From: Candidatus Omnitrophota bacterium
GTDB taxonomy: Bacteria; Omnitrophota; Gorgyraeia; Gygaellales; Profunditerraquicolaceae
Length of the DNA: 52,830 bases
NCBI GenBank assembly: GCA_023819035.1
Contig: JAMWCL010000003.1
Span: 1-52,830 of the forward strand
Direction: 5' to 3'
The number at the start of each line of letters is the position of its first letter. Position 1 is the stretch's first letter. The position numbers were made by a program, and so were the translations under genes. This document shows, in pieces, positions 23,979 through 29,649 of this stretch. Under the pieces are notes generated by a model. The model ran no database searches and was not told where the DNA came from. It saw only the letters and a list, made by a program, of their open reading frames with translations.

Positions 23979-24716
23979 CTAAATCCTGTTTAAAACATCA
24001 GTCAAAACCTCAGAGATATACTCTAAAGCAGGAATAATGTGAGCGTATTCCATACGCATCGGACCTAAAACTGCGATTTTACCTGAAGGTTGATACTTAA
24101 GTTGATAGCTAGAAACTACTAAAGAACAGGAGTCCATCTCCGGACAACCCAGCTCCGGACCGATATAGACCTTTACCTTTTCCTTAAAATCTCGGTTAAT
24201 AATCTCTAATAATCTCTGTTTATCCTCCATAACACGTATCAATAAACGAATCCTTTCCAGATCATGAAACTCCGGCTGTTCAAGGATATAACTTATACCT
24301 TTATAAAAAACCTTATCCTGCCATTCTACAAAAGAAACAATCCCGGCATAATGAGTTATGGCAGAGATGATCTCGGAGGTCTGCTCTAAGATATCTTCTA
24401 ATCGTAAGATCTCTTTTTTATATTCCTTCAAAATCCTTTCTTTCTCTTCATCTAAAAGCTCCATCTGGGAAAGGAGAAAATCTACATAATAACGATACCC
24501 CTTACCTGTGGGAATCCTTCCTGAAGAGGTATGGGTATGGGTAAGATAACCGCATTCCTCTAAATCCGATAATATATTCCTTATCGTAGCAGAGCTGAGA
24601 TCAAAATCCTTGGCAATATCTTCCGAGGCGACCGGCTCTTTTTCTTTAATATAACGATCGATCACCTTACTTAGAACTGCCCTTCTTCGATTCTCGTAAT
24701 CTACTAATCTAACCAC
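23979..24716 (-). CDS. hrcA: Heat-inducible transcription repressor HrcA (short form)
   Basis: SSATIRN, HTSSGRIPT.KGYRYYVD, QPEF, LGPMRMEY; precedes grpE and has its own CIRCE. Confidence 0.92.
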   Translation of the reverse strand: MVRLVDYENRRRAVLSKVIDRYIKEKEPVASEDIAKDFDLSSATIRNILSDLEECGYLTHTHTSSGRIPTGKGYRYYVDFLLSQMELLDEEKERILKEYKKEILRLEDILEQTSEIISAITHYAGIVSFVEWQDKVFYKGISYILEQPEFHDLERIRLLIRVMEDKQRLLEIINRDFKEKVKVYIGPELGCPEMDSCSLVVSSYQLKYQPSGKIAVLGPMRMEYAHIIPALEYISEVLTDVLNRI

Positions 24717-24740
24717 AATCCTCCTTTTTTTGAACTTAAT

Positions 24741-24767
24741 TTAGCAGTCTATAATTAAGAATGCTAA
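24741..24767. promoter_or_regulatory. CIRCE upstream of hrcA
   Basis: TTAGCAGTC-N9-GAATGCTAA, beginning 6 nt after the -10 box. Confidence 0.92.
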
Positions 24768-24773
24768 ATTTTA

Positions 24774-24801
24774 ATTTTAACACAAATTAATCCTTTGTCA
24801 A
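24774..24801 (-). promoter_or_regulatory. Sigma70 promoter for hrcA-grpE-dnaK-dnaJ
   Basis: TTGACA (24801-24796, within the clpB 3' end), 16 bp, TGn-TAAAAT (24779-24774). Confidence 0.75.
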
Positions 24802-27426
24802 TCTTTCATCCTTCTGGATCTGGAATATAACCTTATTATTCTTGTCTAAATCTATCTGGATTTTATCTGCTTGCTTTAAAGAACCATCGAGTAATTTTAA
24901 GGAAAGGGGATTCTGGATATATCTCTGTATGGTCCTCTTTAATGGGCGCGCACCAAAATTAATATCAAATCCTTTATCGCAAAGAAAATCTTTTACCCTT
25001 TGGGTTATCTTAAGTTCTATCCCTATCTGAGATAGCTTCTTATAAATGGGCTTAAGCTCTAAATCTAAGATCTTGTCAATCTCCTCTTTGTTTAAGGAAT
25101 TAAAGATGATAATCTCATCTATACGATTTAAAAATTCTGGTCGGAAGAATTTTCTTACCTCTTGAAGCAATCTCTCTTTCATATCTTGATATGCTAAGTT
25201 ATCCTTTGTAGTTCTAAATCCAACTGAACCATATTGTTGAATAAGCTCTTGCCCAATATTAGAAGTCATAATAATTAATGTATTTTTAAAATTGACGGTT
25301 CTACCTTGACCATCGGTAAGCCTTCCTTCATCTAAAATCTGTAAAAGAATATTAAATACATCAGGATGCGCCTTTTCAATCTCATCTAAGAGTATTACTG
25401 CATAGGGTCTTCTTCTAATCCTTTCAGTTAGCTGTCCGCCTTCTTCATATCCTACATATCCAGGGGGAGCCCCGATGAGTCGGGAGACGCTAAATTTTTC
25501 CATATACTCAGACATATCTATTCTTACCAGAGCATTTTCATCATCGAATAAAAACCAGGCTAAGGTCTTAGCCAGCTTGGTCTTTCCCACACCTGTAGGT
25601 CCCATAAATATAAAGCTACCGATAGGGCGATTCTCATCGGAAAGCCCGGAGCGTGAACGCCTAATACAATTGGCAATGATCTCAATAGCGTGATCCTGGC
25701 CGATAACCATTTCTTTTAGACGCTCCTCCATCTTCAATAATCTTTCCGTATCGTGCTCCTTAAGTTTCGTTAAAGGGATACCTGTCCATTCTGAAACTAT
25801 CTGAGCAATATCCTCTTCCTCTACCTCTTGGCGTAACATCGGGGTCTGATTCTGGGTGATCTTCAGTTGCTCATTATAATTCTTTAACTCCTTTTCTAAT
25901 TCAATCAATCTTCCATATTTTATTTCTGCTACCTTATCTAAATCTCCCATTTTCTCTGAATTTACTGCCTCGAGCTTCAATTCCTCTATTTTCTCTTTAA
26001 TCTTTTTAATCTTTAAAATTAGTGATTTTTCCTTTTCCCATTGTTGTTTTTTATTCTCTAAGTCTTTCTTAAGTTCTCCTATCTCTTTTTCTACCTTATT
26101 TAATCTTTCAAGGCTAGATTCATCCTTTTCTTTTTTTAAGGCCTGTCTTTCTATCTCTAATTGGATAATCTTCCTTTGCACCGCATCAATTTGCTGGGGC
26201 ATACTGTCTATCTCTAAGCGAAGTCGTGATGCTGCTTCATCAATCAGATCTACTGCTTTATCAGGAAGGTGTCGGTCAGTAATATAACGTGATGAAAGTC
26301 TTGCTGCAGCAATAAGCGCTGAATCCTTAATTCTTACCCCATGATGAATCTCATATCTTTCCTTTAAGCCCCTTAAGATAGCAATGGTATCTTCTATCGT
26401 GGGCTCTTCTATAAATATGGGTTGGAATCTTCTTTCTAAGGCTCCATCCTTTTCAATATGTTTGCGATATTCATCTAAGGTAGTAGCGCCAATGCAACGT
26501 AACTTTCCTCGGGCAAGCAGAGGTTTTAACATATTAGAAGCATCAATTGCACCCTCAGCTGCACCAGCGCCCACCAAGGTATGTAACTCATCGATAAAAA
26601 GAATAATCTGGCCATTCTTATTTTCTATCTCGCGTAATACCGCCTTTAATCTATTCTCAAACTCACCGCGGAATTTTGCTCCGGCAACCAGACTCCCTAA
26701 ATCTAAGGCAATTATTCTTTTCTCCTTTAATCCTTCAGGTACATCACCTGAAACAATCCGCTGGGCTAAGCCTTCCACGATTGCAGTCTTTCCTACCCCG
26801 GGTTCACCGATTAAGACCGGATTATTTTTAGTGCGCCGGGATAAAACCTGCATTACTCGGCGTATCTCTCTATCCCGACCAATTACCGGATCAAGCTTTC
26901 CCCTTAAGGCTAAATCTGTAAGGTCTTGTCCATAGCGGGATAAGGCATTGAATTTCTCTTCAGGATTCTCATCGGTTATCCGGTGGCTACCCCTAATTTG
27001 TGCCAGGGCCATAAGTATCTTCTCTTTATCTATACCACGCCTCTTTAATTCTTGTGTAATCGAGGAGGCGCTATCGGAGAATAAAGACAAAAGAAGGTGT
27101 TCTCCTGAAAGAAACTCATCCTTTAATAATTGCGCTTCCTGGGTAGCCTGAGTAAAAAGTTGATTTGTGCGAGGAGAAAAATAGACCTGAAGAGATTTAC
27201 CGCTTACCGCAGGTTTTTTCTTAAGCTCTTCTTCAATTAATCTAATTATAGAAAAACTAGGGATACCCAGCTTATCTAAGACCAGAAGAATGATACTTTC
27301 TGATTGTCTGAGTAAGGCATAAAAGATGTGTTCGGGTTCCACCTGTTGATGGCCGGACTGCGTAGCGAAATTAATCGCTTCCTGGATTGCCTCTTGTAAT
27401 TTTACGGTTAATCTATCTAATCGCAT
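24787..27426 (-). CDS. clpB: ATP-dependent disaggregase ClpB
   Basis: Two AAA+ modules ([16 protein letters not shown]), long coiled-coil M domain, [13 protein letters not shown]. Confidence 0.96.
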
Positions 27427-27460
27427 TCCTTGCTCTCCTTGTGAAAAATAAGCCAGAAAA

Positions 27461-27973
27461 TGCCAGGGAGGTAGTTCATAATTTTATTTCACCTCTACCT
27501 TTATCTGTTTAGGTTTGGACTCTTCAGTCTTAGGGATAACTATCTCTAAGACCCCGTCCTTATAGGTTGCTTTTACCTTGGTAGTATCCGCATAAGGGGG
27601 TAAAGTGAAACTGCGTTTAAATACACCATAGAATCTCTCTATTCGGTGATAACTCTTATCCTTAACCTCTTCTTCGCGCTTCCTTTCTCCCTGAAGGGTA
27701 AGAATATCACCGGTAATAGAGATATTTATGTCTTGCTGTTTCACTCCCGGTAGATCTGCTTTAATAATTATATTCTCCTTATCCTCTGCCACATCCAAAG
27801 AAGGAGACCAGATGCCTTCTTTAGAGACCCTTTCGGGTAAGAGTTCAAGGGAAGTATCGAAGAAACGTTGGAATTCCTTTTCCAGATCAAGGAGTTCCCG
27901 GAAAGGATCCCATTCTCTACCTCTCCATTTTATGAGTGCCATATCTATCACCTCCTTTTTTACCTCCCTGGCA
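27461..27973. repeat. Perfect 13-bp inverted repeat pair flanking hsp20 (arms 27461-27473 and 27961-27973)
   Basis: TGCCAGGGAGGTA at 27461-27473 is the exact reverse complement of TACCTCCCTGGCA at 27961-27973. Confidence 0.9.
27484..27942 (-). CDS. Small heat-shock protein (Hsp20/alpha-crystallin)
   Basis: WDPFREL, ADLPG, ERFYGVFKRSFTLP, ATYKDGVLEI. ATG at 27942 with SD AAGGAGGTG (27957-27949) preferred over GTG at 27951. Confidence 0.95.
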   Translation of the reverse strand: MALIKWRGREWDPFRELLDLEKEFQRFFDTSLELLPERVSKEGIWSPSLDVAEDKENIIIKADLPGVKQQDINISITGDILTLQGERKREEEVKDKSYHRIERFYGVFKRSFTLPPYADTTKVKATYKDGVLEIVIPKTEESKPKQIKVEVK

Positions 27974-27982
27974 GCTCTTTTA

Positions 27983-28009
27983 TTAGCAGTCTGATAAATT
28001 AACTGCTAA
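27983..28009. promoter_or_regulatory. CIRCE upstream of hsp20-clpB
   Basis: TTAGCAGTC-N9-AACTGCTAA. Confidence 0.88.
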
Positions 28010-28025
28010 AGAAAACGTAAAAAAT

Positions 28026-28289
28026 TTATTCTTTGCTTTCTAATTCTAAGATTACCCTTATTCCATTAATGTTAACCCCCTTTTCTTCCATTAAGAAATG
28101 AATATATTCTAATTTTTTTATATCTTTTAAGGAATAAAGACGGATCTTCCTACCCACCCTCTTGGGACAAACGATCCCTGCCTTATCTAATTGACGCAGG
28201 GTCCAGATGGGAAGATCTACAAGTTTACTTACCACGCTGATGACATATACCGGTTCATCCGGGCTGATATGGATATCGAAGAGGGGCAT
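28026..28289 (-). CDS. MerR-family (HspR-like) transcriptional regulator, paralog 2
   Basis: DEPVYVISVVSKLVDLPIWTLRQLD...RLYS...GVNINGIRVIL resembles the HspR N-terminus; strong SD. Confidence 0.88.
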   Translation of the reverse strand: MPLFDIHISPDEPVYVISVVSKLVDLPIWTLRQLDKAGIVCPKRVGRKIRLYSLKDIKKLEYIHFLMEEKGVNINGIRVILELESKE

Positions 28290-28322
28290 CCTCCTTCCTC
28301 CTTCATCAGAAATCTCACAGAA

Positions 28323-28351
28323 AGTATAACATAAAATAATAATTTTGTCAA
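28323..28351 (-). promoter_or_regulatory. Sigma70 promoter for merR-hsp20-clpB
   Basis: TTGACA (28351-28346), 17 bp, TGn-TATACT (28328-28323). Confidence 0.8.
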
Positions 28352-28389
28352 GTTAATTTAATAAAATTTTTTAGATTATCTAATAAATT

Positions 28390-29649
28390 TTATTCTTTTA
28401 TTTGTATGTCTTTATTTTGTAATAACTTATATGAGAGGGGTTTAGGAAGGTTAACCTTAACTTTTATGTTTTTAGGGAGATACTCTATCTCTTCTACCTT
28501 TCCTTTTTTATAAAATAAATTTATTAAATCCATACGGGTGTGAGGAACAACAAATACCTGCGAACTCATCTTTGACTCAAAATTCTTCTGGATGTACTTG
28601 CAGAGAAGATCAAGGTTCTGATTAAACCTTGCTGAGATAAAGACCGGATTAATAAAATCCCTTGCTACCTTTTCTAACCAGGCGGGATTATTAATCCGAT
28701 CTATCTTGTTTAAAGCAGTGATTGTAGGTTTTGTCTCTACATTCAGGTCTTTTAATACCGCAAATACTGCCTTGCTGTGTTCGTATAATCGAGGATGGCT
28801 TACATCTAAAACATGGATAATCAAGTCTGACTCCGCAACCTCCTCTAAAGTAGCTTTAAAAGCCTCGATAAGATGATGGGGTAGATCGTTTAAAAAACCT
28901 ACCGTGTCTAAAATCACAACCTCTTCTCCATTGGGTAATTTTAAGGTCTTGGCTAAGGGATCTAAGGTGGTAAAAAGGCTGTTTTCAACCCTTTGCTCAG
29001 CCCGGGTAAGGGCATTTAAAAGGGTAGATTTTCCTGCGTTGGTATAACCTACTAAAGCTACCTGCGGGATAGCATTCCTCTTCCTTGCCTTTCTTAAGGT
29101 TAAACGATGTAATCTTAAATGCTTCAACTCGGATTTTAATTTCTCGATCCTTTTTTTGATGCGCCGGCGGTCAACCTCTAATTTCTGCTCTCCTGGACCA
29201 CGTGTCCCAATACCACCCCCCAAGCGGGAAAGGATAATCCCCTTACCCACAAGCCGGGGCATTAGATACTGTAATTGAGCAAGCTCTACCTGCATCTTTC
29301 CTTCCGGGCTTTTTGCATGAAGGGCGAATATATCTAAAATTAACTGCGTGCGGTCAATTGTCTTTTTACCAATAATCTCCTCTAAGTTCCTCTGCTGGGT
29401 ACCCGATAGATCACAACTAAAAATAACGGTATCTATATTATACTCTTTACAGATAAATGAGATCTCTTCGCTCTTGCCTTTACCGATGAAAAGATTGGGG
29501 GTAATCTTCTGGCAAAGGCAGGTTATATTATCTACTATCTCTACCCCTGAGGTGGTGGCTAACTGCTCTAATTCTTCAGCAATATCCTCCACTGGCCAAT
29601 TATCATCCTTAGTTTTAAGTTTTACCGTCACTAAGAGAGCTCTCTCCAT
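28390..29649 (-). CDS. hflX: Ribosome-splitting GTPase HflX
   Basis: DRTQLILDIF, GGGIGTRGPGE, GYTNAGKST, DTVGF, NKID. Confidence 0.96.
   Translation of the reverse strand: MERALLVTVKLKTKDDNWPVEDIAEELEQLATTSGVEIVDNITCLCQKITPNLFIGKGKSEEISFICKEYNIDTVIFSCDLSGTQQRNLEEIIGKKTIDRTQLILDIFALHAKSPEGKMQVELAQLQYLMPRLVGKGIILSRLGGGIGTRGPGEQKLEVDRRRIKKRIEKLKSELKHLRLHRLTLRKARKRNAIPQVALVGYTNAGKSTLLNALTRAEQRVENSLFTTLDPLAKTLKLPNGEEVVILDTVGFLNDLPHHLIEAFKATLEEVAESDLIIHVLDVSHPRLYEHSKAVFAVLKDLNVETKPTITALNKIDRINNPAWLEKVARDFINPVFISARFNQNLDLLCKYIQKNFESKMSSQVFVVPHTRMDLINLFYKKGKVEEIEYLPKNIKVKVNLPKPLSYKLLQNKDIQIKE

Follow-up and report, generated by a model that had tools for sequence, protein, structure and literature searches.

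Organisation of the hsp20 locus

The window, by which we mean the whole 52,830-nt stretch of Candidatus Omnitrophota DNA analysed here, houses a heat-shock supercluster in which the order runs miaB, a tol-pal-like gene, miaA, hflX, an hspR-like gene, a CIRCE element, hsp20, clpB, a promoter, a second CIRCE, hrcA, grpE, dnaK and dnaJ. All genes at the hsp20 locus lie on the minus strand, and its features are given below in the direction of transcription.

28323..28351, minus strand: sigma-70-type promoter (TTGACA, 17 nt, TATACT with TG) before the hspR-like gene; 11 of 12 consensus matches, by consensus only
28026..28289, minus strand: gene for a MerR-family, HspR-like regulator of 87 aa, upstream of CIRCE-hsp20 (PF13411, E 5e-12)
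28019..28028, minus strand: candidate -10 (TAAATT) with a T-run, lying across the hspR stop codon; probably the promoter of hsp20
27983..28009, minus strand: CIRCE-like operator, a 9-N9-9 inverted repeat (HrcA site) and probably a transcribed part of the 5'UTR; 3 mismatches against the CIRCE consensus
27961..27973, minus strand: 5' arm of the predicted long-range helix, mRNA UGCCAGGGAGGUA (sequence, fold, conservation, covariation)
27948..27955, minus strand: true Shine-Dalgarno sequence (SD) GGAGGUGA (also given as GGAGGTGA), outside the helix; read from the sequence and conserved in a nine-locus alignment
27484..27942, minus strand: hsp20 coding sequence, 152 aa, ATG at 27942, TAA at 27486-27484; the loop of the predicted helix
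27461..27473, minus strand: 3' arm of the predicted long-range helix, mRNA UACCUCCCUGGCA (sequence, fold, conservation, covariation)
27441..27460, minus strand: U-rich spacer UUUUCUGGCUUAUUUUUCAC immediately 3' of the 3' arm, read from the sequence
24787..27426, minus strand: clpB, with its SD at 27433-27440 and ATG at 27426 (Pfam/NCBIfam match)
23979..24801, minus strand: promoter (24774-24801), second CIRCE (24741-24767) and hrcA (23979-24716), followed by grpE, dnaK and dnaJ

The assignment of Hsp20 comes from a match to PF00011 (E 4e-25). The 87-aa regulator scores 79 bits against the HspR model, under that model's cut-off of 105; an HspR-like gene occurs in 29 of 41 related genomes and is the conserved upstream neighbour of the CIRCE-hsp20 unit. 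Both elements of a CIRCE/HrcA regulon are in place, a CIRCE-like site upstream of hsp20 and hrcA itself. The candidate -10 of hsp20 was not called by the consensus promoter scan; its hexamer (TAAATT or TAAAAT) and T-run, about 12 nt upstream of CIRCE, are conserved in relatives and correspond to the -10 of clear TTGACA-N17-TAAAAT promoters that precede CIRCE in four more distant loci (L023, L024, L029 and L111). Because this candidate lies upstream of CIRCE, both CIRCE and the 5' arm are probably transcribed, from a start placed by consensus only. The 57-nt spacer between hsp20 and clpB contains neither promoter nor CIRCE, by consensus scan or by eye, so that clpB is presumably read from the hsp20 transcript.

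A perfect complementarity encloses the coding sequence

The thirteen letters TGCCAGGGAGGTA at 27461-27473 of the plus strand are the complement of the 3' arm, and their exact reverse complement at 27961-27973 is the 5' arm; an inverted-repeat search returns the two as an inverted repeat of 13 nt, complementary at 100%, whose arms are 487 nt apart. The 5' arm follows the CIRCE-like repeat by 9 nt and precedes the SD by about 3-4 nt (AAAA), the 3' arm begins 10 nt after the TAA stop, and a U-rich stretch of 34 nt, with the clpB SD inside it, separates the 3' arm from the clpB ATG. An initial annotation of this DNA had reported the complementarity, had given these spacings as 9, 3, 10 and 34 nt and had judged a chance match unlikely. 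The spacings all hold on re-reading the sequence, and the 13/13 match is real: with one mismatch allowed, the window contains no match besides the two arms, at least two matches arise in none of 100 dinucleotide shuffles of it, and the 1.25-Mb assembly holds just these two exact copies, together with three one-mismatch sites elsewhere. The long-range stem also appears in the minimum-free-energy fold of the 611-nt transcript. That the complementarity is far beyond chance follows from the relatives of this locus, in which the same pairing recurs with different letters.

Helices that flank genes are not a genome-wide habit. When 1150 crude open reading frames of at least 90 aa were scanned in the same genome, 8 had a helix score (defined below) of 30 or more, where shuffled partners predict 2.7, and hsp20 ranked second among them. 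The frame ranked first, C30:511-2187, was set aside as a case of a different kind, being a membrane-protein gene beside a tandem repeat.

Pairing is conserved while its letters are replaced

Loci carrying hsp20 were drawn from related genomes, from a set with a single genome for each species (best 80 of 286) and from metagenomes (best 80 of 380), and 143 of 169 were kept once duplicates and loci with cut flanks had been dropped. For each, the best contiguous helix between the 80 nt before the start codon and the 70 nt after the stop codon was scored (G-C 3, A-U 2, G-U 1), and all mismatched combinations of 5' and 3' flanks (n = 20,306) served as the control. This score replaced an earlier one, RNAduplex energies of the 80-nt upstream against the 70-nt downstream flanks, in which our locus came out only at 4 of 142 and which proved too noisy because long interior loops are allowed.

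Non-cognate flanks score 18.4 on average, with a 99th percentile of 29 and a 99.9th percentile of 34. Of the 17 non-redundant loci whose Hsp20 is 61% or more identical, 16 have cognate flanks that form a helix of 11-22 bp, scoring 30-54; the sole exception is L009 with a score of 19. The independent count is somewhat below 16 because L097/L098 and L099/L100 are near-duplicates. Among the 126 more distant loci only two reach a score of 30 (L031 with 15 bp, L037 with 16 bp), and their helices sit in different, unrelated gene contexts.

The sequences that pair are far less constant than the pairing. The arms fall into at least five unrelated types: a UGCC-purine type in nine loci, a second type in L097-L100, and single unrelated sequences in L102, L103 and L022, where the arms extend into the right half of CIRCE. 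An example is the comparison of L097 with L102, whose Hsp20 proteins are identical at 141 of 153 positions and whose coding sequences agree at 405 of 459; their arms are without recognisable similarity, and each pair is perfectly complementary. Arm sequences turn over much faster than the coding sequence that they enclose. In L102, L103 and L022 the 3' arms are inverted copies of the 5'UTR, including part of CIRCE, and given these copies and the fast turnover we may speculate that new arms originate as small inverted duplications that selection then preserves.

Compensatory covariation, to which the initial annotation had looked in hsp20 orthologues, is borne out within the commonest type. In a MAFFT alignment of the nine UGCC-type mRNAs both arms are in register for eight, the ninth (L019) being off by one alignment column, which counts against the helix. 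Across 13 pairs and nine sequences, standard pairs fill 88% of cells (77.5% in shuffles), 9 of the 13 pairs have changed on both sides (4.2 in shuffles) and the covariation score is 0.419 (0.227 in shuffles). None of 500 shuffles reaches the paired fraction, the count of two-sided changes or the covariation score, a count that is not a probability because the nine sequences are related. Controls in which the partner was slid by 1-3 columns, leaving 33-62% of cells paired, and the recurrence of unrelated helix types point the same way.

G-U pairs favour a helix on the mRNA strand. With internal G-U pairs counted, the helix of L019 measures 15 bp in the sense and 6 bp in the antisense reading, and that of L008 14 bp and 8 bp; these two loci provide most of the strand test. 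Five more loci have near-terminal G-U pairs, and the antisense reading gains terminal pairs only, in four loci (L006, L102, L103 and L031). Judged on these comparisons of sequence, a selected RNA helix is very probably real, and concerted mutation, through template switching between the inverted repeats, could have contributed to the complementarity.

Placement of the arms, neighbouring genes and local substitutes

The position of the arms relative to the translation signals is kept along with the pairing. In all 16 loci the true SD lies outside the helix: the 5' arm stops short of the ATG by 18-36 nt, and an A-rich linker whose length varies stands between arm and SD. From the stop codon to the 3' arm the distance is 9-12 nt in 10 of 16 loci; it is 4-7 nt in L100 (4 nt) and L017, and 15-28 nt in L007, L018, L102 and L022. 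An inner extension of the L018 helix begins 3 nt after the stop, and this locus together with L100 means that clearance from the ribosome is not a strict rule.

The neighbourhood is constant in part. The order and orientation hspR-hsp20-clpB/groES hold in 17 of 17 syntenic loci, with clpB downstream of hsp20 in 11 of 16 and groES in 5 of 16, so that the helix travels with hsp20 and not with its neighbour genes. The hsp20 unit itself is present in 2 of 24 genomes of the same family. Thirty related hspR-CIRCE loci comprise 12 in which CIRCE leads directly to clpB without hsp20, six with hsp20, 11 with other downstream genes and one that is cut. No conserved hairpin lies between CIRCE and clpB in the 12 loci without hsp20, and on this ground an origin by insertion of hsp20 into an ancestral hairpin is rejected.

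In place of the long-range helix, two syntenic loci, L009 and L010, carry local hairpins of very high stability that begin 6-10 nt after the stop. The post-stop structure of L009 reaches -45.9 kcal/mol (z -5.5) and the stem of L010 has 13 bp (z -5.05); neither hairpin is followed by a U-tract, and L009 has an additional local hairpin of 11 bp at the position of the 5' arm. What the loci conserve is thus a strong stem immediately behind the stop codon of hsp20, whose partner strand is, in most lineages, the 5'UTR.

What the helix may do

The structure is well supported, and it is an effect on mRNA decay or processing that we infer from it. We tentatively propose, by analogy with systems discussed below, that the helix acts as a stabilising or processing boundary enclosing the cistron, a reading that we regard as plausible if somewhat short of probable, and our best guess is that it sets Hsp20 output apart from that of the downstream gene. 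The host transcript would be controlled by CIRCE and HrcA and would run into clpB or, in other lineages, groES. On pairing of the arms in the mRNA, SD, open reading frame and stop codon would be closed into a loop of about 490 nt; this should be compatible with translation, because the helix lies just beyond the reach of ribosomes initiating on its 5' side and terminating on its 3' side. Genes for RNase Y, RNase E/G and PNPase are present, and one for RNase J was looked for and not found. RNase Y and RNase E/G, both single-strand endonucleases, would cut in the A/U-rich spacer, 3'-to-5' exonucleases, PNPase among them, would be halted by the stem that follows the stop codon, on the 3' side of hsp20, and the pairing would tie up the 5'UTR, shielding it from RNase Y and RNase E/G. 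The hsp20 segment could in this way outlast the downstream segment, giving an excess of Hsp20 over ClpB or GroES, and the yield of Hsp20 would be set independently of the downstream chaperone gene. The initial annotation had suggested that Hsp20 is uncoupled from ClpB; the separate output of Hsp20 stays as the best guess, while the link to clpB is not essential, groES taking its place in part of the loci. The preference for a long-range partner over a local hairpin is unexplained by such a boundary.

The alternatives are taken here in order of weight: an attenuator, a translation aid, an SD switch or thermometer, a DNA-level or mutational origin, an RNase III-type site and the masking of Rho. 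The first two would amount to active long-range control of a kind undescribed in bacteria, whether by a split terminator or attenuator or by a closed loop that returns terminating ribosomes to the SD, and such control we consider doubtful. If it were true, the 5' and 3' ends of one cistron would communicate, setting the ratio of Hsp20 to ClpB or GroES.

In a gene-spanning split attenuator, the 3' arm and the U-tract would be the downstream half of a terminator and the 5'UTR its upstream half, and the state of the 5'UTR would decide what RNA polymerase does past hsp20. That the halves are divided in this manner is rather unlikely, and so is the corollary that a fraction of transcripts ends after hsp20 according to whether the 5' arm is free or bound. 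The 3' arm has no local partner, neither clpB nor groES has its own promoter in the short spacer, and a U-tract directly follows the G+C-rich 3' arm at our locus and in L097-L100, L096 and L019. The 8 nt after the stem hold 3.9 T on average against a background of 2.6, and five or more T in 6 of 17 loci, ours among them; this tract is nevertheless poor or absent in the other 11, L103 has an A-tract there, and the replacement hairpins of L009 and L010 also do without one. Intrinsic terminators have a G+C-rich stem with a short loop of 3-8 nt. A consensus scan finds none at our locus, where the stem is G+C-rich but the 487-nt loop is far outside known terminator geometry, and in this genome hairpins with T-tracts are no more frequent behind stop codons (30/1166) than in coding controls (36/1168). 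The gene for Rho is present, which also counts against an attenuator.

A closed-loop translation aid would bring the stop codon beside the SD, so that terminating ribosomes or their subunits re-initiate on hsp20 and more Hsp20 is made under stress. The distances suit it: 4-20 nt separate the SD from the 5' arm, the 3' arm usually lies 10-12 nt beyond the stop, and the SD is free and next to the A-rich linker. The local hairpins of L009 and L010, however, substitute for the helix without joining the ends of the cistron, and to our knowledge re-initiation of this kind has no bacterial precedent; we consider it improbable.

The initial annotation had proposed, among other roles, a thermometer or a switch in which the 3' arm alternates between an SD-like 5' arm and the real SD, and this reading is largely refuted by the comparison of loci and now looks very unlikely. 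The 5' arm of our locus does contain GGGAGG, and the real SD, as the annotation had noted, or that of clpB could serve as partner of the 3' arm; anti-SD-like sequences far downstream are, moreover, reported to be able to repress mRNAs of B. subtilis (PMC12697547). These motifs belong to the UGCC type alone, and neither the SD/anti-SD content of the arms nor the alternative pairing is conserved: the arms of 7 of 16 loci (L097-L100, L102, L103 and L022) have no such motif, and the real SD stays outside the helix throughout. As for temperature, the stems are perfect and are predicted to be stable to 85 °C. In all 18 loci modelled the helix is part of the predicted minimum-free-energy fold, with a mean pair probability of 0.75-1.0 at 37, 55, 70 and 85 °C, the values modelled for 85 °C being 0.75-0.97. 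An Rfam scan of positions 27000-28600 with E up to 10 returned no ROSE element or other thermometer, only chance-level matches to miRNA and snoRNA families.

A feature of the DNA without a role in RNA could take the form of an invertible segment, of the terminal repeats of a cassette or of inverted repeats maintained by template switching, and the first two had been offered as an alternative from the start. The resemblance of the 3' arms of L102, L103 and L022 to an inverted duplication of the 5'UTR and part of CIRCE would fit, as would the patchy distribution of the hsp20 unit within its family and its place before clpB in some genomes and groES in others. Gene order and orientation are nonetheless constant in every syntenic locus, and the arms differ between lineages, so that no single protein-binding sequence is kept. 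G-U pairs inside the helix are confined to the sense strand, flanking repeats are no habit of the genome, and the neighbours examined (chaperone, tRNA-modification and GTPase genes) include no recombinase, in agreement with the initial annotation. We regard a purely DNA-level origin as highly improbable.

A double-strand processing site, also raised by the initial annotation, would have RNase III cut the helix and so excise or destroy the hsp20 segment. The helices of L102, L018 and L022 (17-25 bp) are long enough, and icaR offers a precedent (PMC3868564), but many helices have merely 11-14 bp. Searched with the RNase III model TIGR02191, 41 genomes of the order, of which 21 reach 90% completeness or more, yield no such gene, an absence that in metagenome-assembled genomes is not proof, and PF14622 has no match in our own genome; the chance that RNase III acts here seems slight indeed. 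Scarcely more can be said for a C-rich 3' arm that serves as a Rho loading site masked by the 5' arm, with clpB readthrough depending on the pairing: Rho is present, the commonest helix type has 3' arms rich in C and poor in G, and intrinsic terminators are not evident in the genome, yet the other helix types are not C-rich.

Comparison with known systems

Pairing of a bacterial mRNA's 5'UTR with its 3'UTR is documented in only a handful of instances (such as hbs, icaR and the hok-type toxins), each established by mutagenesis in one species. Searches of the literature for an hsp20 5'/3'-UTR helix, for long-range UTR pairing in small heat-shock genes and for the Omnitrophota heat-shock response found no description. 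That pairing of this general kind exists is known; what is new is its cistron-enclosing form within an operon, its association with a heat-shock gene, the breadth of its natural covariation and its setting in an order whose searched genomes yielded no RNase III.

The closest known system is probably hbs of B. subtilis, in which a 14-bp interaction between 5' and 3' UTR is reported to limit cleavage by RNase Y (Braun, Durand, Condon 2017, PMC5737220). The likeness extends to a perfect helix of about 14 bp reaching from the 5'UTR to just past the open reading frame, with 13 bp at our locus and 11-22 bp in 15 relatives. As described there, hbs is a small, highly expressed gene whose pairing coexists with translation and limits the access of RNase Y, an enzyme whose gene is present here too. 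The 3' element of hbs is placed just upstream of a canonical terminator on a monocistronic mRNA, whereas the Omnitrophota hsp20 loci have their next gene within 34-60 nt and show no evident terminator. The evidence also differs in kind, being covariation across lineages for hsp20 and mutagenesis for hbs.

In icaR of S. aureus a 3' motif is described as covering the SD, blocking translation and creating an RNase III site (PMC3868564). As in that mRNA, a pyrimidine-rich 3' element pairs with a purine-rich element in the 5'UTR of the same molecule; unlike it, hsp20 pairs upstream of the SD, its motif content is not conserved and the order apparently lacks the nuclease. A second parallel is offered by the intergenic stem-loops of operons, which are reported to direct selective RNA processing and stabilisation (PMC4423207, PMC10667835), a stable stem after the upstream cistron setting mRNA stability and stoichiometry relative to the genes downstream. 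The local stems of L009 and L010 are exactly of this type. The known cases are local hairpins, whereas the partner strand of the hsp20 stem lies some 490 nt away in the 5'UTR.

Whole genes enclosed by a helix between their flanks are familiar from the fold-back of hok-family mRNAs and from the stems flanking 16S and 23S rRNA. Those serve to keep a toxin mRNA inert or to mature rRNA through RNase III; here, by contrast, the enclosed gene encodes a chaperone, its SD is free and RNase III was not found. With ROSE and fourU elements the hsp20 helix shares the presence of a post-transcriptional RNA structure at a small heat-shock gene, and little else: those are local, imperfect hairpins that hold the SD or AUG and melt at mild heat, and the hsp20 helix is none of these.

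Set beside these systems, the hsp20 helix is among the better comparative cases for selection on whole-cistron mRNA loops, since its arm letters have been replaced completely while pairing and position were kept, across many lineages of an uncultured phylum. Whether or not it bounds the cistron as we propose, it would make a simple and portable object on which to test how a loop affects decay, processing, termination and translation, the more useful in an order apparently without RNase III and without visible intrinsic terminators.

Distribution of the hsp20 unit and the composition of its 3' arm

Own-type hsp20 is patchily distributed, being found in 2 of 24 genomes of the family to which the organism belongs, yet its closest homologue (83%) lies in another family of the same order, a combination suggesting that the hsp20 unit has been lost or transferred. 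Among more distant, Omnitrophota-like loci, L024, L029, L111, L025, L108 and L031 each have a tandem pair of hsp20 paralogues following a single CIRCE, the HrcA operator. With the exception of L031, no helix pairing the 5'UTR with the 3' flank, and so enclosing the coding region, was predicted at these tandem loci.

In L102, L103 and L022, loci from related genomes or metagenomes, the 3' arm in the hsp20 3' flank contains, in inverted orientation, a copy of CIRCE's right half. At the DNA level, a CIRCE half-site is thus also found downstream of hsp20; at the RNA level, the CIRCE hairpin and the predicted long-range helix would be mutually exclusive. Elsewhere in the organism's own genome (G000, C30:400-2300), a tandem repeat with a unit of ~ 16 nt lies downstream of the gene for a 559-aa polytopic membrane protein, NADH-dehydrogenase/antiporter-like as judged by eye; one of the repeat copies shows complementarity to 23 nt of sequence ahead of that gene.

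RNA decay and transcription termination

A search for RNase III (TIGR02191) in 41 genomes from this Omnitrophota order, the own genome and 40 related ones, found the gene in none; 21 of these genomes are at least 90% complete. Searches of the own genome likewise returned no match to PF14622 or to RNase J. Genes for RNase Y, RNase E/G, PNPase and Rho are all present there. Across the whole genome, sites combining a hairpin with a T-tract, based on crude ORF calls, were not enriched past stop codons (30/1166, against 36/1168 in coding controls), and canonical intrinsic terminators seem to be little used by this organism.

HspR-like genes adjoining CIRCE operators

Two modules in the window share a single plan, in which an HspR-like MerR gene is followed by CIRCE and then by a chaperone gene:

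28026-28289, HspR-like MerR gene (hspR)
27983-28009, minus strand, CIRCE, followed by hsp20-clpB
1068-1307, HspR-like MerR gene
1009-1035, CIRCE
693-983, groES

In both, the operator lies ~ 20 nt past the stop codon of the HspR-like gene, and 29 of 41 relatives likewise have an HspR-like gene with CIRCE after it. The hspR stop codon is overlapped by a conserved TAAATT/TAAAAT hexamer and a run of 6-8 T (28019-28028), kept at the same place in L007-L022 and L178-L205. This hexamer is probably the -10 element of the CIRCE-controlled promoter, the -35 of which would consequently fall within the hspR coding sequence. It is unusual for an HspR-type gene to sit directly on an HrcA-type operator, and this adjacency suggests that control is coupled.
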